Source: Gemmatimonadales bacterium
Lineage (GTDB): Bacteria > Gemmatimonadota > Gemmatimonadetes > Gemmatimonadales > GWC2-71-9
Direction of reading: 5' to 3'
DNA length: 64,000 bases
Assembly: GCA_037189525.1 (NCBI GenBank)
Contig: JBBCJC010000002.1
Span: forward strand, 928,001 to 992,000
Shown here: piece by piece, positions 5,507 through 24,318 of the stretch
Layout of the letters: the number at the start of each line of letters is the position of its first letter
Numbering within the stretch: position 1 is the first letter of the stretch
Notes under the pieces: model-generated
The model's database searches: none
Told to the model about the DNA's origin: nothing
Seen by the model: the letters and a program-made list of their open reading frames with translations, nothing else
Program-made: the position numbers and the translations under genes

Positions 5507-7552
5507 ATGAAGGTCTACGGCTCGGACGCAGTTCGGAACGTGGCGGTCGTCGGCCACGGATCCGCTGGAAAGACGACGCTGGTCGACGCTCTCGCCTTCG
5601 TTTCAGGCTCGATCAAGCGACACGGTTCGATCAAGGAAGGCAACACGCTCACCGATACCTCACCCGACGAAATCGAACGACAACACTCCATTACGCTGGG
5701 GCTCGGCTTTGCCGAGTGGATGGATACCAAGATCAACCTGCTGGACACGCCGGGTTATCTCGAATTCTATGGTGACGTCGCGGCCGCGCTGGCGGTGGCG
5801 GATGCGGCGATCGTCGTGTTGAGCGGCACCAGCGGCGTCGAAGTGGGGACCGAGAAGGTCTGGGCCTTCTGCGATCATCATCACTTGCCGCGCATCCTGT
5901 TCGTCTCACAGATGGACAAGGAGCATGCCGACTTCGGGCGGGTCTTCGACGATGTGCGCGATCATCTGACGCCCAAGGTGCTGCCGGTGGAGATTCCCGT
6001 CGGTGACGGGCCGAACTTCACCGGAATCATCAATCTGTTTACCGGGACCTACCAGCGCTTCGCGCCCGGCTCCAAGGCCGGCGAGTTCGAAGAGGGGCCG
6101 ATTCCCGAGGAGTACCGGGACACGTTCGGACGGTACATGGAGCAGTTCACCGAGACGATTGCCGGGACCGACGACACCCTGATCGAGAAGTTCCTGTCGG
6201 GAGACGCGCTGTCGCGCGAGGAGATCGTTCCGGCCCTCAAGCGCGCCATGCTGGCGGGGGAGATCGTACCGCTGTTCTGCGGCAGCGGCGACCGCTTGCT
6301 GGGGATCAGGACGCTGCTGACCGAGCTGGTCGAGTTGCTGCCCTCGCCGCTCGAGGCGCCGAAGCCGGCCGACGGTCCTCTGGTGGGGCGGGTCTTCAAA
6401 ATCGTATCCGAACCGCATGTCGGCGACATCAGCCTGTTCCGGCTCTACAGTGGCGGAGTCAAGAACGGCGCCGATGTCTGGAATCACGAACACAACGTGG
6501 CCGAGCGATTGGGGCATCTCTCGGTCCAGCAGGGGCGGGACCGGCTGGAAGTTGCGGAGCTTGCGGCAGGCGATATCGGGTCCGTCGCCAAACTCAAGGA
6601 CACCCATACCAACGATACTTTCTGTCATCGTGACCACCCTGTACATCTCGATCCGATCGAGTTCCCGGATGCGGAAGCCACCTCGGCCGTGCTGGTCAAG
6701 CAGCGGGGTGAGGAGGACAAGCTCGCGGGCGGATTGCACAAGCTGCACGAGGAGGATCCGACTTTCCACTTCGAGTACAATTCCGAACTGGGACAAACCC
6801 TGATCCACGGCCTGGGTGAGCGGCATTTCGAGGTGATCCTCGGCCGGCTGGCGCGCAAGTACGGCGTCCATGCGGAGCTGGTGCGCCCACGGATTGCCTA
6901 TCGGGAAACCATCAAGGGAACGGCGGAGGGGCAGGGCAAGCACAAGAAGCAATCCGGAGGGCGGGGTCAGTATGGTGACTGCTGGATTCGTCTGGCGCCT
7001 CGGCCGCGGGGGGCGGGATACGAATTTGTCGACAAGATTGTCGGCGGCGTGATTCCGGGGAAGTACATCCCTGCCGTCGATCGCGGTGTGCAGGAAGCGG
7101 CTGAGCGAGGCGCGCTGGCCGGCTATCCCCTGGTGGATTTCCGGGTCGAGTGTTTCGACGGGAGTTACCACGACGTCGATTCCAACGAGATGTCATTCAA
7201 GATGGCCGGGATTCTCGCGTTTCGAACCGTGGCATCCAAGGCGAGCCCCGTGCTGCTCGAACCGATCGTGCAGATCGAGGTCGACACGCCGAGCGAACTG
7301 ATGGGCGATGTTCTGGGCGATCTGACGCCGCGCCGCGGACAGGTGCAGCACACGGAAGCCGTCGGGCGGCTGACGCGGGTAACGGCACTGGTGCCCCAGG
7401 CCGAGCTGTACAAGTATTCGACCACGTTACATTCGATCACCCACGGGCGCGGCACCCATCGGGAGCGATTCCACGGGTATGCCGAGGCACCGCCGCACAT
7501 TGCCGCCAAAGTCGCCGCGGAGAATGCAGACAGACGAACCAGTGAAGCATGA
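5507..7552 (+). CDS. fusA: Elongation factor G paralogue (EF-G2-like)
   Basis: GHGSAGKTT, DTPGY, KKQSGGRGQYG, GSYHDVDS and LLEPI; divergent G motifs; not in an rpsL-rpsG-tuf context. Confidence 0.93.
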   Translation: MKVYGSDAVRNVAVVGHGSAGKTTLVDALAFVSGSIKRHGSIKEGNTLTDTSPDEIERQHSITLGLGFAEWMDTKINLLDTPGYLEFYGDVAAALAVADAAIVVLSGTSGVEVGTEKVWAFCDHHHLPRILFVSQMDKEHADFGRVFDDVRDHLTPKVLPVEIPVGDGPNFTGIINLFTGTYQRFAPGSKAGEFEEGPIPEEYRDTFGRYMEQFTETIAGTDDTLIEKFLSGDALSREEIVPALKRAMLAGEIVPLFCGSGDRLLGIRTLLTELVELLPSPLEAPKPADGPLVGRVFKIVSEPHVGDISLFRLYSGGVKNGADVWNHEHNVAERLGHLSVQQGRDRLEVAELAAGDIGSVAKLKDTHTNDTFCHRDHPVHLDPIEFPDAEATSAVLVKQRGEEDKLAGGLHKLHEEDPTFHFEYNSELGQTLIHGLGERHFEVILGRLARKYGVHAELVRPRIAYRETIKGTAEGQGKHKKQSGGRGQYGDCWIRLAPRPRGAGYEFVDKIVGGVIPGKYIPAVDRGVQEAAERGALAGYPLVDFRVECFDGSYHDVDSNEMSFKMAGILAFRTVASKASPVLLEPIVQIEVDTPSELMGDVLGDLTPRRGQVQHTEAVGRLTRVTALVPQAELYKYSTTLHSITHGRGTHRERFHGYAEAPPHIAAKVAAENADRRTSEA

Positions 7553-8210
7553 ATCGGAGTCGGAGACGCCGCGACCCCTCATCATCGGGGTCGTGGGCGG
7601 CTCCGGTTCCGGTAAGACGACGGTGGCGCGCGCTATCTATGGGGCGTTGGGTCTCGATGCGGCGTTCATCGATCAGGATGCCTATTATCGCGATCTGGCC
7701 CATCTGCCGATGGCCGAACGCGTCAAACTCAACTTCGATCATCCCGAAGCTTTCGATACCGATCTCCTGATCCGTCACCTGGAGGCGATTCGGCGCGGGG
7801 CGCCCGTGTCCAAGCCGACCTACGATTTTGCGGCGCACACCCGGGCGGCGCAGACGGTGCTGATCGAGCCCAAGGAGATCGTCATCGTCGACGGCATCAT
7901 GCTGTTTGCGGACCAACGGATTCGCGACCTGCTCGACATCAAGATTTACGTGGATGTGGCGGACGATATCCGTTTCATCCGCCGGCTGGAGCGGGACGTG
8001 GCCGAGCGGGGGCGCACGATGGCGGGGGTGATTCGTCAGTATCTCGACACCGTGCGTCCGATGCACCTCGAGTTCGTCGAGCCGTCGAAGCGGTACGCCG
8101 ATGTGATCCTTCCGCAGGGCGGGCACAATCAGGTCGGGGTCGACATGATCCTCGCCAGGGTGTTCATGGAGTTGGCGCGCCGGCGCCAGCGCGCCGACCT
8201 GCCGAGCTAG
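7542..8210 (+). CDS. udk: Uridine kinase
   Basis: IIGVVGGSGSGKTT, QDAYY, NFDHPEAFD, RRLERDVAERGR, FVEPSKRYADVI; start may be GTG 7542 or ATG 7524. Confidence 0.93.
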   Translation: MKHESESETPRPLIIGVVGGSGSGKTTVARAIYGALGLDAAFIDQDAYYRDLAHLPMAERVKLNFDHPEAFDTDLLIRHLEAIRRGAPVSKPTYDFAAHTRAAQTVLIEPKEIVIVDGIMLFADQRIRDLLDIKIYVDVADDIRFIRRLERDVAERGRTMAGVIRQYLDTVRPMHLEFVEPSKRYADVILPQGGHNQVGVDMILARVFMELARRRQRADLPS

Positions 8211-9262
8211 GGAATGACGCCGATGGCTTGGGAGACGGTGCGGTAGACAGCCGTTTCCGCAGCGACGAATTCCTCGAACTCCCGGCCGGTGAGCAGAAAC
8301 GGGCGCAGTCCGTTTCGGGCGAGCAGGGCATTCCACTCGGGCGATTTGGCCACGCGAGTCAGTCGCTCGACCCAGTGATCGTAGACCTCGTCCGGAACCC
8401 CGGGCGGGGCGTAGAATCCGCGCCAGACTTCCCACGACACCGGCACCCCTTGTTCGCGCGCGGTCGGCACATCGGCCAGCGGACCGGATCCTCGGGTATC
8501 ACCCAGGACGGCCAGGACGCGGACCTCCTTGGAATCGAACTGGCGCCGGATCTCCGAAATTTCTCCGGGGAAGAGCTGGATGCCGTCCGACCGCAGCGAG
8601 TCGATGGCTTCCGCGGGGCGGTTGAGCGGCAGATAGCGAACCGCCCGGAGGTCGATGCCCGCAACCTCGGCCAGCAGCAAAACTTTGACGTGGTCCTGTC
8701 CTCCCGCGACCGAGACGCCGCCGGTGATCACCTTGTCGGGGTTGGCGCGCCAATAGCGAATCAGGTCCGGGAGCGTGCGCCACGGCGCGTTCGCCCGGAC
8801 GGCGAGCACGCTGGGCTCGGCGCCCACGGCCGCGAGCCACCGCACGTCGCGCTCCGTCAGCGTACCGTAATGTTGCTGGGCGAGGCCGAGTAAGGTGGAG
8901 GGGCTGGCGGCGATGACAGTCTGCTGATCGCCGCGCATCTCGGCGACCACGCGCGCAAAGGCGACCCCGCCGCCTTCTCCGGCGATGTTGATGGTTCGCA
9001 TCGAGGTCGAATCCGGCTCGGCCAGGGCAATAGCCTCCGCCATGGCGCGGCAGGTGAAGTCCCATCCGCCGCCGGGATTGGCCGGGGCAATACAGGTGGA
9101 CCCGGCCTTCGATTCGGATGCGCATCCGGCGAGACCGACGATGAGCCCGGCCCAGAAGACCGCCCGACCCAGACGTGACCCTGTCGGATGGGCGCGAGGT
9201 GTTGCAGGGGCGGACGCTGAAACGGTCCGCAGGGGGTTGCAGGACAGGGGGCCGGTCGACAC
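8207..9262 (-). CDS. tctC: Tripartite tricarboxylate transporter substrate-binding protein (TctC/Bug family), predicted lipoprotein
   Basis: CIAPANPGGGWDFTCR, NIAGEGG, GGQDH, VPTAREQG, WRGFYAPPG; lipobox LAGC; start uncertain. Confidence 0.88.
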   Translation of the reverse strand: MSTGPLSCNPLRTVSASAPATPRAHPTGSRLGRAVFWAGLIVGLAGCASESKAGSTCIAPANPGGGWDFTCRAMAEAIALAEPDSTSMRTINIAGEGGGVAFARVVAEMRGDQQTVIAASPSTLLGLAQQHYGTLTERDVRWLAAVGAEPSVLAVRANAPWRTLPDLIRYWRANPDKVITGGVSVAGGQDHVKVLLLAEVAGIDLRAVRYLPLNRPAEAIDSLRSDGIQLFPGEISEIRRQFDSKEVRVLAVLGDTRGSGPLADVPTAREQGVPVSWEVWRGFYAPPGVPDEVYDHWVERLTRVAKSPEWNALLARNGLRPFLLTGREFEEFVAAETAVYRTVSQAIGVIP

Positions 9263-9269
9263 GCTCGGC

Positions 9270-9298
9270 AATTTAGAAGCCCGGTCGCGGCGACGCAA
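9270..9298 (-). promoter_or_regulatory. Sigma70-type promoter of tctC-like gene (possibly leaderless)
   Basis: Minus strand TTGCGT-N17-TAAATT, then 7 nt to in-frame GTG at 9262 with no SD. Confidence 0.5.
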
Positions 9299-9485
9299 AA
9301 CGCCGGATGGCGTTCGTCACTGGCTGCGCATAGATGTCCTGCCGGTTGACCGTGCCGTCCGGACCGGACGACAGTTGCATCTGGCGGCAGGGTTATTATC
9401 TGATACGGCATGGCGGCGTCGGGGCGGGTGAAGGGGAACGCTGCCGCCGGTTGTCGTTGCGGGTCCATCACTCCGGATCGATTCT

Positions 9486-10178
9486 ATGCGGCTTCTCCTG
9501 GTGGAAGACGACGAGGCGTTGTCCGAGACGCTGGCGGGCGGCCTGCGGGAGCAGGCGTATGCCGTGGATGCGGTGGCAGACGGTGAAGCCGCGTTGTCGT
9601 ACAGCCGGATCACGCCGTATGACGTGATCGTCCTCGACATCAACATCCCGCGGCTGGACGGTCTGACGCTCTGCCGGACCTTGAGGAGTGACGGATCGGC
9701 GGTGCGGATCCTGATGCTGACGGCGCGTGCGAGCACGGCAGATCGGATTCGGGGGCTCGACAGCGGCGCGGACGACTATCTCGCCAAGCCGTTCGAATTC
9801 GAGGAACTGCTGGCGCGGCTTCGGGCCTTGCTGCGCCGGCGAGGCGATCAGGTCGATCCGGCGCGCGTCACGCTGGTCGATCTGGAGATCGACTTCGATG
9901 CGCAGCAAGTCAGCCGAGGTGGCGTAGCCATCGATCTGACGACCAAGGAATACACTCTCCTTGCCTATCTGGCCCGGCATGTGGGCAAAGTCATCGGCCG
10001 TGCGGAGCTGACGGAGCACGTCTGGGACGACAATCACGATCCGGGGACCAACGCGGTCGAGGTGTACATCAATCGTCTCCGGAAGAAGATCGATACGTCG
10101 GGAGTACCGTTGATCCATACCCGTCGTGGGGCGGGATACTACCTGGCGCTGCCGGACGGGCGATCGGTCGGGCCCTAG
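9486..10178 (+). CDS. OmpR-family response regulator
   Basis: MRLLLVEDD, VLDINIP (phospho-Asp), LMLTAR, GADDYLAKPF, winged helix with VEVYINRLRKK and TRRGAGY. Confidence 0.95.
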   Translation: MRLLLVEDDEALSETLAGGLREQAYAVDAVADGEAALSYSRITPYDVIVLDINIPRLDGLTLCRTLRSDGSAVRILMLTARASTADRIRGLDSGADDYLAKPFEFEELLARLRALLRRRGDQVDPARVTLVDLEIDFDAQQVSRGGVAIDLTTKEYTLLAYLARHVGKVIGRAELTEHVWDDNHDPGTNAVEVYINRLRKKIDTSGVPLIHTRRGAGYYLALPDGRSVGP

Positions 10179-10179
10179 C

Positions 10180-11667
10180 ATGGCGGGTCGCGCGCCGCTG
10201 CTCCGATCGCTTCGGACCCGTCTGGCCCTCTGGCATGCCGGCACGCTGGGTCTGGTCCTGATCATCTTCGCGGCGGCGACCTGGGCGTATCTGGAGCGGA
10301 TCACGCAGGAGCGGGTGGATCAGTCGCTCGCCGATGCGGTCCGGTCGTTCTATCAGGCGGTTCTGGCCGAAGTGCAGGAAGGAACCCCGCCCGAAGATGC
10401 GGCGGCCAAGGCAGCTCGAGAATTTCGATTCAGCGAGCGGCGGGTGCTCGTGTACGGCAGCGGCCATCGCCTGATTGCGGTATCCGACTCGGCCAACGAC
10501 GTCCTGACACGGGCCATCTCCGCGATCGAAGACGCCGACGACTCACCGATCCATCCGCTGTTTGCCTCGCTGATTCCCGGCAGCTCCGCATATGCCATGG
10601 TTGGCGACGCGGGCGAACCGATTCGCAGCTATGCGCGGAGCGTGCCGGTTGCCGGCGAATATCTCACCATCGTCGCGTTGCAGCTGGGACTCTCCGAGCG
10701 GCTGATCGTGGCCACCTTCTGGCAGGCTGCGCTGGTCGCGATTCCGCTCGCGCTCCTGGTGGCCGGTGTCGGCGGGTATCTCCTGGCGCGGCGCAGTTTC
10801 GATCCGGTCGTGACCATGGGGCGTGAGGTGGCCGCGATCGATTCCGAACATCTCGCGGCCCGGGTCAGGGTTCGCGGGAGCGGCGACGAAATGGACGAGC
10901 TGGCCGCGGTCTTCAATGACATGCTGGCCCGACTCGAGCGATCATTCGTCCAGCAGCGCCAGTTCATGGCGGATGCCTCGCACGAACTGCGCACGCCGGT
11001 GGCGAGCCTCAGAGCGGCCGCCGACATCGCGCTGTCGCAGCCGCGCTCGGCGGCGGAGTACACGGCGGCGCTTCGCCATGTTCGGGACGAGGCGAGGCAC
11101 CTGAGCGATACCGTGGCCGACGTCTTTACCCTGGCCCGTCTCGACGACGAAGAACACGTTCTACATCGCGAAGAATTCTTTCTCGAAGAGATCGTGATGC
11201 GCTCTGTCAGCGCCATCTATCCGCTGGCGCAGGAGCGCGGGCAGCGACTGCAGTTCACGCCGTCACGTGAAGCCCGGTGCGAAGGGGAACCGCTGCTGAT
11301 CGAGCGGCTGGTGAGCAACCTCCTGGACAACGCCATCAAGTATACGCCGGCCGGCGGAGAGGTCCGGGTCGAACTCGATGGTGAGCCCGGCTGGCATATC
11401 GTGCGCGTCGGGAACGAGGGAGAGGGCATTCCTCCCGAGGCGCAGGCGCACATTTTCGATCGCTTCTATCGCGCCGATGCCGCTCGGACTCGATCGGGCA
11501 GCCGGCCCGGCGGAGCGGGGCTCGGTCTTGCGATTGCATGGAAGATTGCCCGCGCGCACGGCGGCTCGCTGGAGCTGACTGCATCGGACGGTCTGGCCAC
11601 GGTTCTCACGTTTCGTCTTCCCGCCCATCATCGACCCGTCACGGTCGTTAATCCTGTGTCTAGGTAA
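10180..11667 (+). CDS. Sensor histidine kinase (two TM segments, periplasmic domain, HAMP, HisKA, HATPase)
   Basis: DASHELRTP H-box, NLLDNAIKY N-box, IFDRFYR, GAGLGLAI; ATG 10180 just after the regulator stop. Confidence 0.95.
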   Translation: MAGRAPLLRSLRTRLALWHAGTLGLVLIIFAAATWAYLERITQERVDQSLADAVRSFYQAVLAEVQEGTPPEDAAAKAAREFRFSERRVLVYGSGHRLIAVSDSANDVLTRAISAIEDADDSPIHPLFASLIPGSSAYAMVGDAGEPIRSYARSVPVAGEYLTIVALQLGLSERLIVATFWQAALVAIPLALLVAGVGGYLLARRSFDPVVTMGREVAAIDSEHLAARVRVRGSGDEMDELAAVFNDMLARLERSFVQQRQFMADASHELRTPVASLRAAADIALSQPRSAAEYTAALRHVRDEARHLSDTVADVFTLARLDDEEHVLHREEFFLEEIVMRSVSAIYPLAQERGQRLQFTPSREARCEGEPLLIERLVSNLLDNAIKYTPAGGEVRVELDGEPGWHIVRVGNEGEGIPPEAQAHIFDRFYRADAARTRSGSRPGGAGLGLAIAWKIARAHGGSLELTASDGLATVLTFRLPAHHRPVTVVNPVSR

Positions 11668-11783
11668 CGCACCCTAGATTCTCGCTCCTGGCTCTCATTC
11701 GATCATCGGCGTACCTGCTATCGGCGACAATCCGGTGCGCCCATCGCGGCATTCCACTCCTTTCCCTGCCGGGAGACGACCGC

Positions 11784-14700
11784 ATGTCGAACTGTACTCC
11801 GTTCGTCGCGACGCTGGTCCTTGCCATCCAATTCCAGGCGGCGCTTGGTGCGTCGCAGGCGCTCAGCGCGACTTCGACCGCCGGTGGGCCTGCTCCGCCG
11901 GCGGTTTCGCGTGTCTTTGCCGGGACGGTCGCCGGCAAGGTGACCGATGAGCGGACGGGTGAAGCGATCGTCGGCGTCCACGTTTCCGTCGTCGGCACCG
12001 CGTTGGCGACGGTAACGGATGCGAACGGCCAGTATCGCATCACCGGGGTGGCGGCGGGGAATGTGATGCTCCGGCTCCGCCGGATCGGATATCAGGCGCC
12101 GCCCGATCGTCCGATCACGGTCGTCGATAACGGGACAGTGACGGTCGACTTTACCCTTGCCATGGCGCCGCTCTCGCTCGACGCGCTGGTCGTGACCGGC
12201 ACGCCGGGCGGAACCCAGGTCCGAGCCATCGGCAATGCCGTCGATCGTCTCGATATGGCGGCCGCTGCGGAGCTGTCGCCGGCGGTCAACGTTCAACAGC
12301 TGCTGGGCCAGCGGAGTACGGGGGTCATCAGTCTCCCCAACTCGGGCATGGTCGGCACCGGCTCGGCGATCCGGATTCGGGGCGCTGTTTCGCTCTCCCT
12401 GACCAGCCAGCCGCTGATCTATGTCGACGGCGTGCGGGTCGACAACAATCCATCGGCGGGACCGAACATCCGGCAGGGTCGCCAGGCCTCCCGGCTCAAT
12501 GACTTCGATCCGGAAGACATCGAGTCGATGGAGATCATCAAGGGCCCCGCCGCCGCAACGCTCTACGGGACCGAAGCATCGAACGGGGTCATCCAGATCA
12601 TCACCAAGCGCGGCAAGAGCGGTAAGCCGGAATTGTCCGTGACGGCGCGCGAAGGCCGCAACTGGCTCAACAACGCCGAGCAGCGGTTACGGTACGTCTA
12701 TGGGGTCAACCCGAATACGCAGCAGGTCGACAGCGTCAACCTGATTGCCCATTGGCGCAGCCTCACGGGCGAGGAAATCTTCACCACCGGCGCCATGCAC
12801 GGGGTCGACGCGAGCCTGAGCGGCGGAACCGACGCGGTCCGCTACTACGTCTCGGGTGATTATCTCGATAACACCGGCCTGGTCGACTACAACTGGCAGA
12901 AGAATGCCGGTCTCCGGGCCAACATGTCGCTGCTGCCGTCGAGCAACTGGTCCGTCAACGTGACGACTGCCTTTGCCCGCAACGAAACCCGGTTTGCGCA
13001 GGCAGCGGATCAGTTCGGGGTCTGGGAAATGCTGGTGTATGGATCGCCGGCTCTGTTCAACTCGGCGACGCAGGGGTTCCGCTACGCCAACCCGACGGTG
13101 GCATCGCAGGTCGATTCCCGTTCCAAGATCAACCGCTTTACGGGCGGTGTCGAGATCAAGCACGAACCGTTGCCGTGGCTGACCCACCAGCTCAAGGCCG
13201 GCGCCGACATCGGCATGACCACCAATCAGATTCTGTTTGCCCGACCCGCGGCGGAGTACGCCACGTTTTACGGCGCCCGGTCGGTTGGCGAAAAGACACT
13301 GGAACAGGTCAACGCGAACTATACCACGCTCGACTACGCGATTACCGCCAAGGCCCCGCTGTTCGGCTTCGAGACCTCCACGTCGGTCGGTGCGCAGTAC
13401 TATCGCAAGCAAACCACCTTCACCAGCGAATTCGGCCGGAACTTCCCGACGGCCGATGTGACGACCATCGGTGGCGCCGCGACCACGCAGGCCGGCGAAG
13501 ACTACGTCGAGAACAAGACCCTCGGCTTCTATGTGCAGGAGCAGCTCGGCTGGAAGGATCGCCTCTATCTGACCGCGGCGCTGCGTGGCGACGGGAACAG
13601 CGCCTTCGGCCGCGACTTCAAGGCAGCCTACTATCCCAAGTTCAGCGCGACGTGGGTCCTGTCGGACGAACCGTTCTTCAATGTCGGCGCGGTCAACACC
13701 GTACGGCTCCGCGGTGCCTGGGGACAAGCCGGCCAGCAGCCGGACGCGTACGACGCGGTCACGCTGTACGCTCCCTCCACCGGCCCCGGCGACTCGCCGA
13801 TCGTTACGCCAGGCTCGCTCGGCAATCCGACGCTCAAGCCGGAGCGGAGTACCGAACTCGAGTTGGGGATTGACCTCGGGTTCTGGAACGACCGGGTCAC
13901 GGCGACCTACACCCGGTACGACCGGCGGACGCGAGATGCCATCGTGCGCCAGCCGGTGCTTCCCTCGGAAGGGTTCCCGGGTGTCCGCGTCGTCAACCTG
14001 GGTGAGGTCAAGGCGTGGGGCAACGAACTCAGCGTCAACGCCCGCGTGCTCGAAGGGAACACGCTGAGCTGGGATCTCGGCGTCAACTACGCCACGGCCA
14101 AGAACCGGATCGAGAGCCTGGGCGGGCTGCCGCCCATCGTGCTTAGCGCGTCGCAGGAACATCGCGTGGGGTATCCGGTCGGCGGGAGCTGGTCGCAGAA
14201 AGTGCTGAGCGCGAGCTTCACGCCGACCGGCGCGCCGACCAATGCGATGTGTGACGGCGGGGTCGAGGCCAATCATGCGCCGGTGCCGTGCGCGGACGCG
14301 CCCAAGGTGTACTGGGGGCAGCCGACGCCCACCTGGCAGGGAAGCGTGATCAACACGTTCACCGTGATGCGGAATCTCCGCTTGTCTGCGCTGGTCGACT
14401 TCCAGGGCGGCATGCTGTACGAAGACGGCGAAATTCAGGCCGGGCATCAGAACTTCCGCAACACCGCCCAGTCCAATCGGGGCGACGACCCGATCTTCGC
14501 GGCGTATCAGACGCTGGTGCCGCGGGCGCCGCTCGGCTTCTTCGATGCCGGATTCGCGAAGCTGCGCGAGTTGTCCGTGAGCTACACGGTTCCGTCCTCA
14601 GTGGTACGGCGTTTCGGGATGCAGCGAGCCTCGATCAGTGGCGCCTGGCGTAACGTCGGATTGGTCTGGCAGGCGCAGGACCAGATCTGGGGAACCAAGC

Positions 14701-14807
14701 TGTTCGATTCGGAGATGCGCACGCCGGGCTCGGAATTGGGCAGCCGGTACCAGACGATGATTCCTCCTGCTTCGCAGGTCGTGTTCACCCTGCGGACCTC
14801 CTTCTGA
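11784..14807 (+). CDS. SusC/RagA-family TonB-dependent outer membrane receptor (SusC1)
   Basis: Signal peptide, carboxypeptidase-regulatory-like domain, LDALVVTG, plug PLIYVDGVRV and DIESMEIIKGPAAATLYGTEASNGVIQIITKRG, GNPTLKPE, C-terminal Phe. Confidence 0.93.
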   Translation: MSNCTPFVATLVLAIQFQAALGASQALSATSTAGGPAPPAVSRVFAGTVAGKVTDERTGEAIVGVHVSVVGTALATVTDANGQYRITGVAAGNVMLRLRRIGYQAPPDRPITVVDNGTVTVDFTLAMAPLSLDALVVTGTPGGTQVRAIGNAVDRLDMAAAAELSPAVNVQQLLGQRSTGVISLPNSGMVGTGSAIRIRGAVSLSLTSQPLIYVDGVRVDNNPSAGPNIRQGRQASRLNDFDPEDIESMEIIKGPAAATLYGTEASNGVIQIITKRGKSGKPELSVTAREGRNWLNNAEQRLRYVYGVNPNTQQVDSVNLIAHWRSLTGEEIFTTGAMHGVDASLSGGTDAVRYYVSGDYLDNTGLVDYNWQKNAGLRANMSLLPSSNWSVNVTTAFARNETRFAQAADQFGVWEMLVYGSPALFNSATQGFRYANPTVASQVDSRSKINRFTGGVEIKHEPLPWLTHQLKAGADIGMTTNQILFARPAAEYATFYGARSVGEKTLEQVNANYTTLDYAITAKAPLFGFETSTSVGAQYYRKQTTFTSEFGRNFPTADVTTIGGAATTQAGEDYVENKTLGFYVQEQLGWKDRLYLTAALRGDGNSAFGRDFKAAYYPKFSATWVLSDEPFFNVGAVNTVRLRGAWGQAGQQPDAYDAVTLYAPSTGPGDSPIVTPGSLGNPTLKPERSTELELGIDLGFWNDRVTATYTRYDRRTRDAIVRQPVLPSEGFPGVRVVNLGEVKAWGNELSVNARVLEGNTLSWDLGVNYATAKNRIESLGGLPPIVLSASQEHRVGYPVGGSWSQKVLSASFTPTGAPTNAMCDGGVEANHAPVPCADAPKVYWGQPTPTWQGSVINTFTVMRNLRLSALVDFQGGMLYEDGEIQAGHQNFRNTAQSNRGDDPIFAAYQTLVPRAPLGFFDAGFAKLRELSVSYTVPSSVVRRFGMQRASISGAWRNVGLVWQAQDQIWGTKLFDSEMRTPGSELGSRYQTMIPPASQVVFTLRTSF

Positions 14808-14861
14808 TCGGAGGCCATCATGATCCCGACCTTATCGACGGCTTCCGGAGAGACCGCAGCC

Positions 14862-16124
14862 ATGACACACCGGATTCGATCGGCTCGCCGCGGCGCGGCG
14901 GCCGCTGCTCTGATGCTCTCGACCCAGCTGCTGGCGGCCTGCGGCGGCATTCTCGATGTGGACCTGCCCGGACGTGTGCGCGAAGAATCGCTCGACAATC
15001 CCGTGCTCGCCCCGACGCTCGTCAATAGCGCCCAGGCCGATTTCGAATGCGCTTACGGCGAGTTCGTCTACAGTACCGGCGCCTGGGCCAACGAGTTCCT
15101 GAACAGTTCGGGCGGCGCAGAAGTGATCGGCTGGGGGGCTCGACTACCGAACTACGAATCGGGCAACGGAACCTGCCAGACCACGACATCGACCCGCGGG
15201 GCGTTTGCAGTGTACCTGCCACTGCAGATCGCCCGTAGCCAGGCGGACGGAGCCATCGCCCGCCTCGAGGGCTTCACGGATGCGCAGGTGGCCAATCGGG
15301 CCCTGCTGATTGCCACGGCGGCGCTGTACAGCGGCTTTACCCATGCGCTGCTGGGCGAAGCGTACTGCGAAATGGCGCTCTCGCCGACCGAGCCGCTGGT
15401 GTCGCGTACGCAGGTACTGACTCGCGCCGAGGAGCGATTTACCAAGGCGATCGAGACGGCCACCTCGGTGACCGGTGCAAACGCGACCAACGTCTTGAAT
15501 GCGGCGCGGGTCGGCCGAGCTCGGGTGCGTCTCGGTCTCAACCGGCTCACCGAGGCGGCGACCGATGCCGCGCTGGTGCCGGCGAATTTCGTGTACAACG
15601 CCACCTATTCCGGCGCTACCTTCCGGAGGAACAATCCGGTCTTTCTCGTCAACAATGCCAACTTCCATCTTTCCGTGGCGCCGGAGTATCGGGGTCTCAC
15701 GGTCGACGGAACGGCCGATCCGAGAGTGCCGGTCACCAATGCCAACCGTCAGGGTCAGGACGCACTGACGCCGCTCTGGCTCCAGGGCAAGTACACGGCC
15801 ATCACCTCGCCGATTCCGCTCGCGACCTGGGACGAAGCGCAGTTGATTCTGGCCGAGGCTCGTGGTGGTCAGGAGGCCGTCGATGCGATCAATCGGATTC
15901 GCGCGCGGTATTCGCTACCGGCGTTCGGCGGAGGCGATGCGGAGACGATTCGCGCCCAGATCATCGAGGAACGCCGCCGAACGCTGTTCCTGACCGGGCA
16001 TCGCGTGGGTGATCAGCTGCGTTACGGTATTCCCTTTGCGACCGGTACCAACCAGAAGGGTGTGGCGTACGGTGTGGCAACCTGCCTGCCCTTGCCGCCC
16101 GCCGAGAGTGACGCACGAGGCTAA
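14862..16124 (+). CDS. RagB/SusD-like outer membrane lipoprotein (SusD1)
   Basis: Lipobox LLAAC; EAQLILAEA, INRIRAR, EERRRTLFLTGHRVGD; directly after SusC; alternative start 14820. Confidence 0.85.
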   Translation: MTHRIRSARRGAAAAALMLSTQLLAACGGILDVDLPGRVREESLDNPVLAPTLVNSAQADFECAYGEFVYSTGAWANEFLNSSGGAEVIGWGARLPNYESGNGTCQTTTSTRGAFAVYLPLQIARSQADGAIARLEGFTDAQVANRALLIATAALYSGFTHALLGEAYCEMALSPTEPLVSRTQVLTRAEERFTKAIETATSVTGANATNVLNAARVGRARVRLGLNRLTEAATDAALVPANFVYNATYSGATFRRNNPVFLVNNANFHLSVAPEYRGLTVDGTADPRVPVTNANRQGQDALTPLWLQGKYTAITSPIPLATWDEAQLILAEARGGQEAVDAINRIRARYSLPAFGGGDAETIRAQIIEERRRTLFLTGHRVGDQLRYGIPFATGTNQKGVAYGVATCLPLPPAESDARG

Positions 16125-16142
16125 CATCGTCAGGTGTGCAGA

Positions 16143-16173
16143 GCCGGCGCCGGGGGTCGAACCCGGCATCGGC
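16143..16173. repeat. Intergenic 12-bp GC-rich hairpin; minus strand resembles a tRNA acceptor/T-arm minihelix
   Basis: GCCGGCG-CCGGG-ggtcgaa-CCCGG-CATCGGC; minus-strand loop TTCGACC. Confidence 0.6.
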
Positions 16174-16190
16174 GCCACCGCAACCTCAGG

Positions 16191-18122
16191 ATGAACATCA
16201 TGAGCCGCCTGTACTTCGCAGCCCTGGTCGGGGCACTCTCCCTCCTTGCCGACGGAAGCCAGTCGTTGCTGGTCGGTCAGCGAACGGCCCCGCCGTCGCG
16301 GACCTCGCTCGAGGCGTCGACGATTCCCGCTCAGTTCGAGGCCGTCCTGGCGCAGGCAAACGTCATGGTCCCAATGCGGGACGGCGTCAAGCTGGCGACG
16401 GATATCTACCGCCCGGCCCGCAACGGAACGCCTGTGACCGAGCGGCTTCCTGTCCTCTTGATGCGAACGCCGTATGACAAGTCCGCCGGCGGCGGGGCGA
16501 CGGCCAAGTTCTTCACCGAGCGCGGGTATGTGGTTGCCGTGCAGGATATTCGGGGGACCTATCGATCCGAAGGCGAGTTTGCCAAGGTGCAGCCGGCGGA
16601 TGCGCCCGACGGATTCGATACGGTGGAATGGTTGGCCAAGCAGTCCTGGTCGAACGGCTCGATCGGCATGTGGGGTACCTCCTACGCCGCCCACATGCAG
16701 GCGGCGGCTGCGCAAACTCGGCCGCCGGGTCTCAAGACGCTGATCCTCAACATGGGCGGGATGTCGAACGCCTGGGATCACGGGGTCCGGTACCGGGGCA
16801 CCTATGAAATGGGCCGGCAGCTGACCTGGGCGTGGGCCCAGATGCGCGGCAACGGCAAGACCGCCGAGGCGCGCAAGATCGTCGAGGTGGAGAAGGTCGA
16901 AGACTGGTACGACGTCCAGCCGCTCCGGCGCGGCCTCAGCCCGCTGGCTGCGGACCCGCAGTACGAGGGCTGGTACCTCGACTGGTTCGAAATGGCGGAC
17001 TACGGCCCGTACTGGAAAGATCCCGTGATGGCGTGGGATGAGCACTATCACGAAACCTCCGACATCCCGATGCTGCACGTCGGCGGATGGTTCGACATCT
17101 TCCTGGCGGGAACTTTCAAGAATTTCGTCGAGCTTGGCAAGCGGAACAAAACGCCGCAGCGGATCATGGTCGGTCCGTGGACCCATGGCGGCAACAACCG
17201 CACCTTTGCGGGCGATGTCGACTTCGGTCCCGACGCGGCGGTGCGCGACTTCTACAACGATCTGCACCTCCGCTGGTTCGACACCTTCCTCAAGCAGAAG
17301 GCCACCGGTGTCGAGAAAGCGGCCGCCGCTCGGCTCTTCGTGATGGGAACCGGTGACGGAAAGAAGAGTGCCGAAGGCCGGCTGCAGCACGGCGGGTACT
17401 GGGTCGACAGTAACGAGTGGCCGCTCGCCGGGACGCGGCTGGTGCCGTACTACTTCCATGCCGATGGGTCGCTGTCGCCCAACCGGCCGACAGCCTCGTC
17501 GTCGTCGACCACCTACACCTTCGATCCGCATAACCCGGTGCCGACCATTGGTGGCGGGGCATCGACCCGTCTCAAAGATGGCGCGTACGATCAGCGCGAA
17601 GGCGAACGGTTCCCGCCCTCGAAGCCGCCCTACCTTCCGCTCAGTGCGCGCTCGGACGTGGTTGTCTTCCAGACCCCGCCGCTGACGGAGGATGTGACGG
17701 TCATTGGCCCCATCAAAGTGGTGGTGCACGCATCGTCATCGGCGGTCGATACGGACTTTACGGCCAAGCTGGTCGACGTCTACCCGCCAAGCGCCGACTG
17801 GCCGAGCGGTTTCGATATGAATGTCACCGATGCGATCATCCGTGGGCGGTACCGCGCCACGCGCGAGAGCGCGGTGATGCTCACTCCGGGCCAAGTCTAC
17901 GAGTTCACCATCGATCCGTTTCCGACGGCCAACGTCTTCAAGAAGGGGCATCGCATCCGGGTGGATATCTCGAGCAGCAACTTCCCGCGCTTCGACGTCA
18001 ATCCCGGCACGGGTGAGCCGCTCGGCAAGAACCGGAGAATGATTTCTCAGGACAACACGGTTCATCACAGCGCGACCTATCCGTCGCACATCGTGTTGCC
18101 GATCGCGCCGGCGCGTCGATAG
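16191..18122 (+). CDS. CocE/NonD family hydrolase (S15-type acylase/esterase), secreted
   Basis: MRDGVKLATDIYRP, RTPYDK, QDIRGTYRSEG, nucleophile GTSYAA, GGWFD, GPWTH, PepX_C-like SSSNFPRFD; signal peptide; start 16191 or 16200. Confidence 0.93.
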   Translation: MNIMSRLYFAALVGALSLLADGSQSLLVGQRTAPPSRTSLEASTIPAQFEAVLAQANVMVPMRDGVKLATDIYRPARNGTPVTERLPVLLMRTPYDKSAGGGATAKFFTERGYVVAVQDIRGTYRSEGEFAKVQPADAPDGFDTVEWLAKQSWSNGSIGMWGTSYAAHMQAAAAQTRPPGLKTLILNMGGMSNAWDHGVRYRGTYEMGRQLTWAWAQMRGNGKTAEARKIVEVEKVEDWYDVQPLRRGLSPLAADPQYEGWYLDWFEMADYGPYWKDPVMAWDEHYHETSDIPMLHVGGWFDIFLAGTFKNFVELGKRNKTPQRIMVGPWTHGGNNRTFAGDVDFGPDAAVRDFYNDLHLRWFDTFLKQKATGVEKAAAARLFVMGTGDGKKSAEGRLQHGGYWVDSNEWPLAGTRLVPYYFHADGSLSPNRPTASSSSTTYTFDPHNPVPTIGGGASTRLKDGAYDQREGERFPPSKPPYLPLSARSDVVVFQTPPLTEDVTVIGPIKVVVHASSSAVDTDFTAKLVDVYPPSADWPSGFDMNVTDAIIRGRYRATRESAVMLTPGQVYEFTIDPFPTANVFKKGHRIRVDISSSNFPRFDVNPGTGEPLGKNRRMISQDNTVHHSATYPSHIVLPIAPARR

Positions 18123-19451
18123 ATGCTGACGCTGCTGGCGTTTGCCATGGTCAGCACCTTCATGGTGCTGATCATGACGAAGCGGATGTCGCCGATGACG
18201 TCGCTGATCCTGGTGCCGATCGTCTTCGGTGTCATCGGCGGGTTCACGACCGAGTTGGGCCCGATGATGCTGGACGGGATCAGGAATCTGGCCCCGACGG
18301 GCGTCATGCTCATGTTCGCGATTCTCTACTTCGCGGTCATGATCGATGCCGGTCTGTTCGAGCCGTTCGTCCGGGTGGTGGTTCGCGCGGTACACGGCGA
18401 TCCGATGAAAGTCGTGGTCGGAACGGCGGTACTGGCGCTCTTCGTCTCGCTGGATGGCGACGGCTCGACCACCTACATGATCACGACGGCCGCGATGTTT
18501 CCTCTCTATCGTCGCCTCGGTATCCGTCCGCTGATCCTCCCGTGTGTGACCATGCTGGCATCCGGCGTGATGAACATTACGCCGTGGGGCGGTCCGACCG
18601 CGCGCGCCGCCAGTGCCCTACAGGTGGATTCGGCCGATCTCTTCCTGCCGTTGATTCCGGCCATGATCGGCGGGGCGATCGGTGTCGTGCTGGTCGCCTA
18701 CCGGCTCGGGCTGGCGGAGCGGCGGCGGCTCGGTTCGCTCACGTTGCAGGACATCGCCGCCTCGACCGAACCCGATCTCACGCTGGTCGGGGCCGATGAC
18801 GACCTCTCCTGCCGTCGTCCCGGCCTGATCAAGGTCAATGCGGTTCTCACCGCGGCACTGATGACGGCATTGATTGCAGGTGTCATGCCCCTTCCGGTGC
18901 TGTTCATGATCGGCTTTGCGGTGGCCATCATGATCAACTACCCGTCGGTTGCCGAGCAGAAGGCGCGGATTGCGGCGCACGCCGGCAACGTCCTGGCCGT
19001 GGTGGGACTGATCTTTGCCGCCGGTATCTTCACCGGCATTCTGTCCGGAACGGCAATGGTCGATGCCATGGCCGAGAGTGTGATCCGGATCGTGCCGGAC
19101 AGCATGGGACCCTATCTGGCGATCGTCACCGGACTGCTGAGCATTCCGTTCACGTTCTTCATTTCGAACGACGCGTTCTATTTCGGGGTGCTGCCGATTC
19201 TGGCCAAGGCCGGCGAGGTCTATGGCATCAGCGCGGCCGAGATGGGGCGGGCATCGCTGATCGGCCAGCCCTTCCACCTGTTGAGCCCGCTGGTGCCGTC
19301 GACCTATCTCCTGGTCGGACTGGTCGGGGTCGAGTTCGGAGACCACCAGCGCTTTACCATGAAATGGGCGTTGCTGGTCAGTCTTATCCTGCTGGCGTTC
19401 GGACTTTTGACGGCGGTGATTCCGTGGGTCGGTCGACTGGCGGGCGGGTGA
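18123..19451 (+). CDS. CitMHS family citrate/metal-citrate:H+ symporter
   Basis: FAILYFAVMIDAGLF, SLDGDGSTTY, NITPWGGPTARA, SNDAFYFGVLP, HLLSPLVP; starts immediately after the CocE stop. Confidence 0.92.
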   Translation: MLTLLAFAMVSTFMVLIMTKRMSPMTSLILVPIVFGVIGGFTTELGPMMLDGIRNLAPTGVMLMFAILYFAVMIDAGLFEPFVRVVVRAVHGDPMKVVVGTAVLALFVSLDGDGSTTYMITTAAMFPLYRRLGIRPLILPCVTMLASGVMNITPWGGPTARAASALQVDSADLFLPLIPAMIGGAIGVVLVAYRLGLAERRRLGSLTLQDIAASTEPDLTLVGADDDLSCRRPGLIKVNAVLTAALMTALIAGVMPLPVLFMIGFAVAIMINYPSVAEQKARIAAHAGNVLAVVGLIFAAGIFTGILSGTAMVDAMAESVIRIVPDSMGPYLAIVTGLLSIPFTFFISNDAFYFGVLPILAKAGEVYGISAAEMGRASLIGQPFHLLSPLVPSTYLLVGLVGVEFGDHQRFTMKWALLVSLILLAFGLLTAVIPWVGRLAGG

Positions 19452-19519
19452 CGCTGTTTCGCTGTGAGCGGGTGCCACGCGTCTTCTGAAGCACGGGGTG
19501 CCGGGTTATCATGCGCGTC

Positions 19520-20167
19520 ATGATCACCGCACTCGAAGCTCTCAAGCGGCTCCAGGAAGGTAACCGTCGTTTCGTCGCCGATGCTCGATCGTCCGAGGTC
19601 TTTCTCGGTCGCGCCCGTCGGGCCGAGCTCACCAGGAGCCAGGAACCGTTCGCCATCATTCTGGGATGCTCCGACTCCCGTGTCCCGGCCGAATTCGTTT
19701 TCGATCAGGGGCTCGGCGACCTGTTCGTGATCCGGGTGGCTGGTAACATCGTCGCCACCTCGCAGGTCGGCAGTGTCGAGTTTGCCGCGGCCCGTTTCGG
19801 CACCCCGCTGGTCGTGGTGCTCGGCCATACGCGTTGCGGCGCCATTCTCGCCACGCTCGAAGAGCTGCGCCGTCCGACGGAGAACCAGTCCCGGAATCTC
19901 CAGGCCATCGTCGATCGGGTCCGTCCGTCGGTCGAGGGATTCCTGGAGACGGAATTGCGCAACGACGAACCCGCGCTGGTTCGTGCGGCCGTACGCGCCA
20001 ACATTCGCGCGTCCGTCAACCATCTGCGGCACGGGTCGCCCGTGCTGGAGCAGCTGGTGCGCGACAACAATCTGATGGTGGTGGGTGCCGAGTATTCGCT
20101 CGAAACGGGCGCGGTCGATTTCTTCGAGGGGATTCCGCCGGAACTTGCTACCGCCCCGCCCGCGTAA
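19520..20167 (+). CDS. Beta-class carbonic anhydrase
   Basis: LQEGNRRF, GCSDSRVP, IRVAGN, GHTRCGA zinc ligands; start 19520 or 19511. Confidence 0.93.
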   Translation: MITALEALKRLQEGNRRFVADARSSEVFLGRARRAELTRSQEPFAIILGCSDSRVPAEFVFDQGLGDLFVIRVAGNIVATSQVGSVEFAAARFGTPLVVVLGHTRCGAILATLEELRRPTENQSRNLQAIVDRVRPSVEGFLETELRNDEPALVRAAVRANIRASVNHLRHGSPVLEQLVRDNNLMVVGAEYSLETGAVDFFEGIPPELATAPPA

Positions 20168-20176
20168 GGACGAGAA

Positions 20177-20575
20177 CTAGCGGACCGGGTCGCGGGTGAT
20201 GCGGGAGAGAATCAGCGAATAGATCAGCACCAGCACGGCAAACACCGCCAGTACGGGTGTGCGAGCCTGCGCGGCTACCGCACCGAATTCTTCCCGCGAA
20301 GTGCTCGACAGGAGAATGACGCCTGGCAGGAAGAGGAGCCAGTGGAGCCAGGGCTTCCAGGCGGCCCTTCGGCTCGGAAACAGCGCCAACAGCAATCCTC
20401 CCAGCGCACCGTACCATGCCCCCGATGCGAGGATCTCGATCGTTCCGCCGGGCGTGTAGATCGGCGTGCTGCCGGTGATCAGGGTCACGCCCCGCATCAA
20501 TGCCCGGCTGCCGAGTCCCAATACAACGAGTCCGGTACCCACGCCAATCAGACCATACCGCAGAATCCGATTCAC
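20177..20575 (-). CDS. Hypothetical membrane protein (about 4 TM segments)
   Basis: Four hydrophobic segments; GTG start with AGGGG RBS just downstream of the transporter stop. Confidence 0.65.
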   Translation of the reverse strand: MNRILRYGLIGVGTGLVVLGLGSRALMRGVTLITGSTPIYTPGGTIEILASGAWYGALGGLLLALFPSRRAAWKPWLHWLLFLPGVILLSSTSREEFGAVAAQARTPVLAVFAVLVLIYSLILSRITRDPVR

Positions 20576-20582
20576 ACGTCCC

Positions 20583-22061
20583 CTAAAAGAACGAACTGGC
20601 CGAGAGCACGGCAAAGAAGCCGTAGAAAATGGCCATGCCTACCAGTCCGAGGCGCGGCCAGAGGCCGGGGCGCAGTTCCCTGGGCAGCAAGCGGGTGTTG
20701 ACGTAGAGCAGATGAATACTCGCAATGACGAACACGATGGCCGCCAGATTGGCCGAGATTTGCAGCAGCACGATCGGCTGCGCGAGCTTGAGGGCAATGA
20801 CGCCCCAGATCACGATCAGCCCCAGCACGGTATAGTAGACCGCGCGGACGTCGCCGCCGCGCCAGGTGCGGACCCGCTCGCTCCCGGTCCAGAGCATGTC
20901 GGTCGTGGCCCGGGTCAACCCTTCCACGATGTCGAGCTGGGTCTTGAAGAGAACCCAGGCGCCGAGAAACGCCACCACGCCGCCGATCAGGGGCATCCGC
21001 GCTTCCATTCCGTTGGCCAGCGCGGCGGCAATGCCGAAACCGCGGATGTCCTGTCCGGGCTCGAGGAAGGTGACATAGAGGAGTGCCGGCAGCGCCATGC
21101 CGAGTACCGCGCCGATGAAGAAGATGCCCCATTGATCGACCCGGACGATCCGCCACCAGCCGCGCCATCGTGCCATGGCCGGTTCGTCCGGCCGGAAGGT
21201 AAAGCCCGTCGGCGCCAGGCCGACCTTGCCGCCCGCAGCGGCAGACGGGATGTAGCCGGCCACGCTTCCCATGCCGTAGCCTTTGTCGCGCGCCCAGTTG
21301 GACAGGGTGATGTTGATCACCCCGCCGGCGCCACTATACGCAGCAACCGCACCCAGCAGAAAGAAGTCGGCGCCCTCCGGCAGGAACGAGAAGGTTCGGG
21401 AAACGGGGTCGAACCCGAAGTATCCGGTCAGCGCGGCGAGCCACGTGGCCGGGGCCACGAAGAGGACGGCCAGTACGACGAAACTGCCGAGGATGGCGGC
21501 GACCAGGATCCAGTTGAGGATTTCGAGGGTACGTTCGATCCGGCGTCCGATGAGCAGGATGGCAACGCAGACGAGGAAGGTCCCGATCCCGATTGCGTAG
21601 ACCACGCTCGCGTCCTGAGGCCCGGCCATGCGCCGGGTGGCCAGGAAGAAGAAGGCGCCCGACGCTGCTCCTGCCCACGCCGGCCAGCCCAGCTGCAGGA
21701 AATAGAGCGCCGCGTAGATCCAGGCCCAGAAGCGCGAACCTGGCTTGGTACGCATGAATCCGGTGCAGGCCGGCTCGCCGGTGGCCAGCGTGTATCGCAT
21801 CAGCTCCAGATTGAAGACGGTCTGCAGTACCGCTGCCACGCCCGCAATCCAGAGCAGGGTGAGCCCGTAGCGTACGAAGGTGGCCGGGCCCAGGAGAAAC
21901 TCGCCGCTGCCGATCGATGCGCCGAGCACGATGACACCGGGACCGATGACACCGAACCATTGCAGGCCCCGTGGTTGGGGTGGCGCAGGCAACTCGGCCT
22001 GACGCCACGGCGCGAGGCCCGAGCGGGCTTCGATCGGTGTATCGGATTGGGATGGGGTCAT
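20583..22061 (-). CDS. Nramp-like/APC superfamily transporter
   Basis: GPGVIVLGASIGSGEFLLGP, RYTLATGE, 11-12 TM segments; ATG 22061 with AGGGGA RBS; lacks MntH DPGN. Confidence 0.8.
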   Translation of the reverse strand: MTPSQSDTPIEARSGLAPWRQAELPAPPQPRGLQWFGVIGPGVIVLGASIGSGEFLLGPATFVRYGLTLLWIAGVAAVLQTVFNLELMRYTLATGEPACTGFMRTKPGSRFWAWIYAALYFLQLGWPAWAGAASGAFFFLATRRMAGPQDASVVYAIGIGTFLVCVAILLIGRRIERTLEILNWILVAAILGSFVVLAVLFVAPATWLAALTGYFGFDPVSRTFSFLPEGADFFLLGAVAAYSGAGGVINITLSNWARDKGYGMGSVAGYIPSAAAGGKVGLAPTGFTFRPDEPAMARWRGWWRIVRVDQWGIFFIGAVLGMALPALLYVTFLEPGQDIRGFGIAAALANGMEARMPLIGGVVAFLGAWVLFKTQLDIVEGLTRATTDMLWTGSERVRTWRGGDVRAVYYTVLGLIVIWGVIALKLAQPIVLLQISANLAAIVFVIASIHLLYVNTRLLPRELRPGLWPRLGLVGMAIFYGFFAVLSASSFF

Positions 22062-22189
22062 GGGTCCCCTAAGCTGCAGCGTGGAGGAAGATCCGGCAAG
22101 GTCCCGAGGCCGTCGCATCTGGCCGGCAATGTCGCTTGTGGATACAATCCTGAATCCCGTCCATTCTCGTCTGCTTCCGGAGGCTCCCC

Positions 22190-23761: not shown

Positions 23762-23835
23762 GGGCGGGTGACAGGGGACGCCTGCATTCGCGTGTCGGTC
23801 AGGCGGAGGCAGGTATCTGAAACGTCGGGGGAGCG

Positions 23836-24318
23836 ATGGAGTATTTCGATCAGCTGATCGCTCCCTGGGCGCGCTGGTACGGCGAGTCCACCGCCGTCTC
23901 GAATGCCGTCGTCATGGTTCATCTGGCCGGACTGCTCTGGGGCGGCGGCCGGGCAGTCACGGCCGACCTCTTCGTGCTCAGGTCCGCGGGGCCTGAGCGG
24001 TTCCGGGAGCAATCGGGTGTCGAGTTTCTCGCGGCGAGCCACCGGCAGATCCTGGCCGGGCTCGCCGCGATCGTCGTTTCGGGGGTAGCGATGGTCCTGG
24101 CCGATCGGGCCCACTATTTCGGCACCCCGGTGTACTGGATCAAGATGAGCGCGGTGGGATTGCTGCTCGTCAATGGTGCAGTGCTGACTCGCCTGCACCG
24201 CGGCCTGGGTGGCGAGGTCGAACTGCGAGGGCGTTGGGATCGAATCCGGCTGAGTTCGGCGGCCAGTCTTTTGCTGTGGTTCGTCATCCTCGGCCTGGGC
24301 GTCTGGCTGGGATCCTGA
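23836..24318 (+). CDS. Hypothetical 4-TM membrane protein (DUF6644-like)
   Basis: VHLAGLLWGGG, SGVAM, YWIKM and SLLLWF pattern; GGGGAG RBS. Confidence 0.65.
   Translation: MEYFDQLIAPWARWYGESTAVSNAVVMVHLAGLLWGGGRAVTADLFVLRSAGPERFREQSGVEFLAASHRQILAGLAAIVVSGVAMVLADRAHYFGTPVYWIKMSAVGLLLVNGAVLTRLHRGLGGEVELRGRWDRIRLSSAASLLLWFVILGLGVWLGS

Follow-up and report, generated by a model that had tools for sequence, protein, structure and literature searches.

A CocE-family hydrolase subfamily beside alternating carboxylate transporters in a Gemmatimonadales locus that may serve feeding on bound citrate

We analysed a 64,000-nucleotide stretch of DNA from a Gemmatimonadales bacterium (contig JBBCJC010000002.1, positions 928,001 to 992,000), hereafter the window, in which a sequence-only reading had placed seven genes and interpreted them as one locus for the use of a citrate conjugate. 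Family models and an open reading frame (ORF) check recovered all seven genes at their proposed positions. The locus joins two conserved modules: a core formed by a CocE/NonD serine hydrolase and an adjacent CitMHS-family citrate:proton symporter, and an accessory module of SusC/SusD, an orphan TctC lipoprotein and a two-component pair. Four transporter families (CitMHS, TcuC/CitA, DASS and TctCBA) alternate beside this one hydrolase subfamily. The hydrolase-transporter core is the part of the earlier interpretation that gained support, while its TctDE-type pair and its single seven-gene unit did not. We consider the chances about even that the cluster is a carbon-scavenging system, in which a citrate-type ester or amide would be hydrolysed in the periplasm and the acid then taken up.

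Results and Discussion

Linkage of the hydrolase to carboxylate transporters

The hydrolase gene (16200..18122, + strand; TIGR00976, 416 bits) lies in an ORF that opens at 16134, with the ATG at 16200 as its likely start, and its product is predicted to be exported, with a Sec-like signal peptide (signal peptides were assessed by eye). The transporter gene (18123..19451, + strand; TIGR00784, 593 bits against a cut-off of 260) starts with an ATG at 18123, one base past the hydrolase stop, which ends at 18122, as had been claimed.

A scan of species genomes gave 69 loci with relatives of the hydrolase, of which 57 were aligned together with the window copy (58 rows); 11 loci with stops or short matches were left out, as was L088, a partial match. 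In a quick tree rooted on 12 CocE paralogues of the source genome, with Shimodaira-Hasegawa-like approximate likelihood ratio test (SH-aLRT) support and no bootstrap, all 58 rows formed one subfamily (SH-aLRT 100) containing an inner clade of 37 (98). Within that clade 24 hydrolase genes adjoin CitMHS (on either side), seven a TcuC/CitA transporter of the major facilitator superfamily, one a co-oriented and one a convergent DASS gene, and the CitMHS and TcuC loci are intermixed in the tree. The major facilitator neighbours exceeded the TcuC cut-off where this was tested (4/4, plus L022). Of the 12 loci left out of the alignment, two (L088 and L145) have CitMHS as neighbour and one (L111) has TcuC.

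We also used an order-wide sample of 301 genomes, picked without regard to gene context and sharing some loci with the species-genome scan, in which hydrolase matches at E <= 1e-170 were found in 17 other genomes. All 16 orthologues of at least 68% identity adjoin a carboxylate transporter (12 CitMHS, 2 TcuC, 1 co-oriented DASS and 1 convergent DASS), 15 of them co-oriented with it, and the orthologue at 57% identity has no transporter within 1.5 kb. Seen from the transporter side, 19 genomes had a CitMHS orthologue and five had TcuC above its cut-off (6 copies), together 24 of 300 genomes; 15 of the 25 transporter copies adjoin the hydrolase (one frameshifted), two adjoin a hydrolase relic of 44-45 residues, one lies inside the accessory module, and seven stand alone. 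With these seven the linkage is one-sided, which is what dependence of the hydrolase on the transporter would lead one to expect.

Among the best 80 of 463 metagenome matches, 36 loci were at least 65% identical; 17 of these adjoin CitMHS, six TcuC (in one case a 26-residue stub at a contig end) and one DASS, and eight were cut by contig ends. Below 65% identity, L278 has the order cocE-tctC-tctB-tctA, and L245 and L247-L249 carry cocE-tcuC with a divergent TonB-dependent receptor. Citrate is handled by CitMHS, by CitA/TcuC and by the DASS member CitT. TctCBA handles it as well (PMC5812351), which makes it the substrate shared by the swapped transporters. The repeated swapping of the transporter family beside the same hydrolase strengthens the inference on the core and lends strong comparative support to the earlier proposal that the hydrolase would free a citrate-type acid for its neighbour.

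We regard it as highly improbable that the genes came to lie together by chance and were then merely inherited. The source genome (G000; 4.65 Mb, 98% complete) is rich in such paralogues, with one TctC, two CitMHS, 17 CocE (aligned over 400 residues or more) and 19 full-length SusC; since SusC lies within 10 kb of 4 of the 17 CocE genes, a SusC-CocE pairing alone is ordinary there. However, no CocE or SusC of that genome other than these two has a match to a transporter or TctC query within 10 kb, and the linkage outlasts both changes of gene order and replacement by unrelated transporter families, which largely refutes chance. Nor is the locus a chimera or an assembly artefact, because two contigs of another study match 9230-14572 and 14629-20400 at ~96% identity, covering nearly all of it, and L077, the locus of the closest relative, has the identical gene order at 83-94% identity; the G+C content matches the rest of the source genome.

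The released acid could instead be tricarballylate or trans-aconitate, from fumonisin-type esters or aconitate methyl esters, which we think improbable. TcuC bears the name of a tricarballylate symporter, in L128 TcuA is encoded immediately before a 61% hydrolase homologue, cocE of L080 is followed by a TcuA-like relic of 22 residues, and the Sphingopyxis fum cluster pairs an esterase with tricarballylate uptake (PMC3136697); for trans-aconitate, a methyltransferase gene lies near outer homologues at 11 genome loci and 10 metagenome loci. However, TcuA was found in one of 43 genomes tested and not in G000, so that tricarballylate is unlikely in the source genome, and PrpF was found in none of the five genomes carrying the accessory module. 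The methyltransferase link is confined to one lineage, amid housekeeping synteny (groEL, glnE-like), and counts once. Tricarballylate catabolism of the tcuABC/fum type was rejected for the source genome, where no TcuA dehydrogenase was found.

Several observations around the homologues deserve mention in their own right. The only TcuA among the 43 genomes sits in L128 (4337-11839) with a TonB-dependent receptor and an M20 peptidase, all just upstream of the hydrolase homologue. L080 has a SusD relic (44 residues, 5884-6015) upstream of the hydrolase and its TcuA-like relic (~7913-7978) downstream, and relics on both sides suggest a decayed larger locus. In L126 (10001-13582) and related Steroidobacteraceae-like loci, an outer homologue lies a few kb from a trans-aconitate 2-methyltransferase gene, often with an alpha/beta hydrolase between them. 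The near-identical copies L247-L249 also hold an NMT1-family binding protein, an orphan, and a regulator/kinase pair, a parallel architecture in a metagenome lineage of 56% G+C. A protein with repeated carboxypeptidase-regulatory-like domains is encoded between cocE and tcuC in L089 (7500-9005) and L132 (7489-8958), and a UxuA-like dehydratase gene lies upstream of cocE in seven loci. The second CitMHS of the source genome (G000:C2:665631-666890, L076), 40% identical, stands in an unrelated context with no hydrolase beside it, and also occurs in a second genome of its genus (L075). A TctCBA set on a Ponticoccus plasmid, convergent near a 42% homologue, was not counted as linkage.

The hydrolase active site

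The hydrolase model has the cocaine esterase fold (predicted local distance difference test score, pLDDT, of 83; template modelling score, TM, ~0.8; ~30% identity), and the predicted triad S183-D321-H351 and oxyanion Y114 are kept in the alignment with cocaine esterase (residue numbers count from 16134). By TIGR00976, the three-domain fold, the Ser-Asp-His triad and the oxyanion Tyr it belongs to CocE/NonD, and it shares fold and catalytic residues with Rhodococcus CocE and the alpha-amino acid ester hydrolases. Sequence and fold searches of the PDB found nothing nearer than cocaine esterase. The named relatives of the window hydrolase are Gemmatimonadota.

Seven residues (K151, H187, H216, R219, R228, S477 and R479) are invariant in 58/58 aligned rows of the subfamily, and the full set occurs in 0/12 CocE paralogues of the source genome. 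In a pairwise alignment H187, R219 and S477 correspond to V121, W151 and L407, given as active-site residues of cocaine esterase (PMC9064048), so that hydrophobic positions of the Rhodococcus enzyme are His, Arg and Ser in the window. The pocket positions derive from this alignment and not from coordinates; the putative basic pocket fits an anionic acyl group.

The accessory module

Upstream of the core lie an orphan TctC-family binding lipoprotein gene (8207..9298, - strand; PF03401, 77 bits against a cut-off of 27) and, on the + strand, genes for an OmpR-family response regulator (9486..10178; PF00072 and PF00486), a HAMP-HisKA-HATPase kinase (10180..11667, in an ORF of 10126-11667 with ATG 10180 as likely start), a SusC/RagA TonB-dependent transporter (11784..14807; TIGR04056, 414 bits against 368) and a SusD-family lipoprotein (14820..16124; PF07980, 29 bits against 23.1). 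With the likely starts at 10180 and 16200, the + strand gaps from regulator to transporter are 1, 116, 12, 75 and 0 nt. All genes passed family models except the regulator and the kinase, for which none of the 25 best NCBIfam models was above its cut-off, and lipoboxes were seen on SusD and TctC. The tandem susC-susD arrangement that defines a SusC/SusD pair (bioRxiv 10.1101/2023.03.17.533168) and marks such utilisation loci is present, and no carbohydrate-active enzyme was found among the scanned genes of 7479-27026.

SusD orthologues (57-59% identity) occurred in 3 of 400 other genomes, which with L077, L143 and the window makes six SusC/SusD loci. Five of the six hold SusC, SusD, TctC, regulator, kinase and a transporter (CitMHS or TcuC). 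All seven genes of the window recur in L143, rearranged as susC-susD-cocE-citM-regulator-kinase-tctC after a tRNA-Met gene, whereas L022 and L162 read regulator-kinase-susC-susD-tctC-tcuC and lack cocE; in genomes G043 and G308 a cocE-tcuC pair lies elsewhere. In the sixth, L161 (9531-17948), the SusC/SusD orthologue stands opposite, on the other strand, a penicillin-amidase-family gene and DctA, in divergent orientation; this set may be a dicarboxylate counterpart. This SusC/SusD is present at 3 of the 37 inner-clade hydrolase loci, and two SusC/SusD-TctC-TcuC loci have no hydrolase; SusC/SusD is dispensable for the hydrolase loci. The co-localisation search that the sequence-only reading had called for supported it on the transporter kept beside the hydrolase and on the seven genes together in L077 and L143, and went against its single obligate unit, as SusC/SusD is mostly absent.

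The TctC gene starts at TTG 9298 or GTG 9262, and its lipobox cysteine (9122-9124) is invariant in 7/7 aligned rows. In a quick tree without bootstrap it falls in one clade with Salmonella TctC (SH-aLRT 98), to which it is 35% identical, and five orphan TctC copies cluster together (87) inside this clade, all of them carrying Pro at a position that is Ser or Thr in the transporter-linked copies. The domain-1 pincer motif, as defined in PMC5812351, is present as in Salmonella TctC. No TctA (PF01970) was found in any of the five module genomes, G000 among them, and tblastn found no TctB in G000; the absence of TctA leaves TctC without a transporter partner.

The regulator/kinase pair had been taken for a TctDE-type system, and this assignment failed. 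The kinase gave no match to 2CSK_N (PF08521) and aligned with Salmonella TctE in its cytoplasmic core only, not in its sensor region, whereas a true TctE homologue aligned over 464 residues; the regulator scored 183 bits against the TctD model NF012023 (cut-off 337), below six other models, and the best NCBIfam models of the pair were CusS/CusR-like, below cut-off. Only adjacency to tctC speaks for TctDE membership, which we rejected. The periplasmic sensor region belongs to no Pfam family and is well conserved among the five module loci, in which regulator orthologues (61-88% identical in L077, L143, L022 and L162) and tctC always occur together. A search of the Atlas with this region gave a cluster with 11% 2CSK_N members (score 0.93), which serves as a lead only, and predictions of a complex between TctC and the sensor region gave 0.00, 0.55 and 0.00 in three runs and were counted neither for nor against. 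We did not count a regulator/kinase pair transcribed divergently from citM in L070, whose kinase has 36% identity and MprF and VirJ genes as its neighbours.

A 19-nt imperfect direct repeat (11647..11665, + strand) with an 11-nt period, 137 nt upstream of susC and overlapping the last kinase codons, is a candidate regulator site. An 11-nt period suits OmpR-family regulators. In four loci (the window, L077, L022 and L143; non-coding in L022 and L143) the repeat precedes susC by 92-190 nt; it has four mismatches in L162, is absent from L161, and, with up to one mismatch allowed, occurs only once in the 4.65-Mb genome. Because the pattern was built from the same loci, only its non-coding conservation and its uniqueness in the genome count. 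A scan for sigma-70 promoters and terminators stayed at chance level.

A model for the locus and its alternatives

Gene content, linkage, transporter swaps, the absence of TctA and motif conservation together suggest the following order of events. Where present, SusC/SusD would raise uptake of the conjugate across the outer membrane; the exported hydrolase would cleave it in the periplasm, its basic pocket holding the anionic acyl part; CitMHS, judged by its family, would bring the freed acid into the cytoplasm, and aconitase, likewise, would pass it into the tricarboxylic acid cycle. Aconitase-family genes are present in all five module genomes. The orphan TctC may sense the acid and pass the signal to the neighbouring kinase and on to the regulator, and the latter, acting at the direct repeat, would activate a promoter ahead of susC; BctC, which reports to BctE, provides a precedent for such co-sensing (PMC5812351, PMC8050422). 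Candidate substrates are citrate alkyl esters, citryl amides and siderophores. A bolder combined proposal is possible, if doubtful: that this subfamily consists of dedicated citryl amidases/esterases which obtain carbon by dismantling citrate-based natural products, among them citrate siderophores made by other microbes, and that at the same time the orphan TctC is a pure sensor for a new, non-TctE kinase family controlling a SusC/SusD importer of a non-glycan organic-acid conjugate.

A number of observations weigh against the carbon-scavenging model. Four of the 37 inner-clade loci (L080, L096, L098 and L102) have no transporter, although two of these end within 700 nt, and four of the 36 close metagenome loci lack one despite adequate flanks. 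The orthologue counts from the 301 genomes are not independent, because all 17 hydrolase genomes fall in one family; it is not that of the window, in which the hydrolase was found in 0/136 genomes, a distribution that suggests lateral gain. The model has low confidence around two of the Arg residues, and the Arg positions flank alignment gaps. The pocket is not citrate-specific, since its basic residues are common to 21 outer subfamily rows, none of which adjoins CitMHS, TcuC or DASS, and in plasmid homologues (37-44%), whose neighbours are ABC transporters or other genes, four of the positions still read K/H/R/K. The second glycine-rich loop is lost in 4/5 orphan TctC copies, whose ligand may thus have changed, and genome G362 (92% complete) carries the accessory module with no hydrolase orthologue found. 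DASS members also handle dicarboxylates, and the same has been described for TctC homologues (PMC5812351).

Some of these points would also fit two loosely joined functions, a free- or metal-citrate uptake set and a co-regulated hydrolase for another anionic acyl conjugate such as a succinyl or glutaryl amide, a reading we find unlikely. The regulator-SusCD-TctC-TcuC sets of L022 and L162, the G362 genome, in which no hydrolase was found, the amidase and DctA of L161, the DASS neighbours at some hydrolase loci and the pocket common to unlinked homologues all agree with it. FecA imports ferric citrate, so such an uptake set has a known counterpart, and the same counter-example weakens the earlier argument that free citrate needs no SusCD importer. 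However, two functions leave unexplained why a transporter is retained through the swaps, with CitMHS or TcuC at 31 of 37 clade loci, and G043 has a second TcuC beside its separate cocE.

Iron piracy, in which SusC/SusD would import ferric citrate siderophores, the hydrolase destroy the ligand and citrate uptake be a by-product, is distinctly unlikely. The CocE family includes amide hydrolases, and IucA/IucC synthetases were found in 0/5 module genomes, so that any such siderophore would be foreign. However, the best match to a Fur box in five upstream regions was 8-10/19 (against a consensus that may not hold in this phylum), no iron-handling family was seen among the annotated recurrent neighbours (selected genes were scanned), and 34 of the 37 hydrolase loci have no intact copy of this SusC/SusD. 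Known siderophore amidases, a precedent for use of such compounds as carbon, serve carbon and nitrogen use and not iron uptake (PMC11800396). The siderophore substrate earlier suggested found no support, nothing favouring siderophores over other citrate esters or amides, and a search of the open-access literature found no paper on the degradation of citrate siderophores.

Comparison with known systems

The window TctC falls in one clade with those of TctDE-TctCBA (Salmonella) and BctDE-BctCBA (Bordetella), and in the Salmonella record tctC is likewise divergent from an OmpR-family pair. The window differs in lacking TctA and TctB, uptake being by CitMHS or TcuC instead, in a kinase without 2CSK_N, and in the addition of SusC/SusD and a hydrolase. 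The Xanthomonas citrate transporter CitH is a CitMHS member, and we know of no hydrolase or SusC/SusD there. It resembles the window transporter in standing under a two-component system, in its case TctDE (PMC3321045), whereas the window kinase is not TctE.

The closest functional logic is that of the fum cluster of Sphingopyxis sp. MTA144, whose esterase FumD is a carboxylesterase of another family than CocE. FumD frees a tricarboxylic acid from a larger ester and FumG is a tricarballylate symporter (PMC3136697), a pairing also described in PMC4843849. That cluster has tricarballylate dehydrogenase genes, which the window lacks, and the available text of its description mentions no TctC or SusD (PMC3136697). 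Polysaccharide utilisation loci of Bacteroidota likewise gather SusC/SusD, a hydrolase, an inner-membrane transporter and a regulator in one locus; the window differs in having no carbohydrate-active enzyme, in a predicted organic acid product, in a dispensable SusC/SusD and in its phylum, Gemmatimonadota. Each single element thus has a precedent, and the combination and the hydrolase-transporter link are probably undescribed: no description of the seven-gene set or of a link between CocE and a citrate transporter was found in the open-access literature.

The cluster suggests that bound citrate may be used as food by a route that is possibly undescribed. It also offers a substrate class for a single subfamily within a large hydrolase family whose members are mostly unassigned, and likewise for one SusC/SusD pair from a phylum that is poorly represented in culture. 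Should citrate siderophores be among the substrates, the hydrolase would provide for the turnover of these compounds in soils and sludge; activity on citrate ester plasticisers or on tricarballylate esters would give it applied value. The orphan TctC offers a clean test case for a signalling-only role.

Other features of the window

A beta-carbonic anhydrase gene (19511-20167, + strand), 59 nt past citM, was rejected as part of the locus, its orthologue adjoining only in L077 among the 69 loci. Beyond it, a membrane protein (20583-22271, - strand) without a Pfam match scores above the cut-off of NCBIfam Nramp_1 (NF037982) and is divergent from an M20 peptidase gene. The window further holds a second SusC/SusD pair behind a GntR/FCD regulator (29487-34770, - strand), a FecR with an STN-domain TonB-dependent receptor (41406-44863, - strand), and an extracytoplasmic function sigma factor-FecR-SusC-SusD set (53997-60147, + strand).

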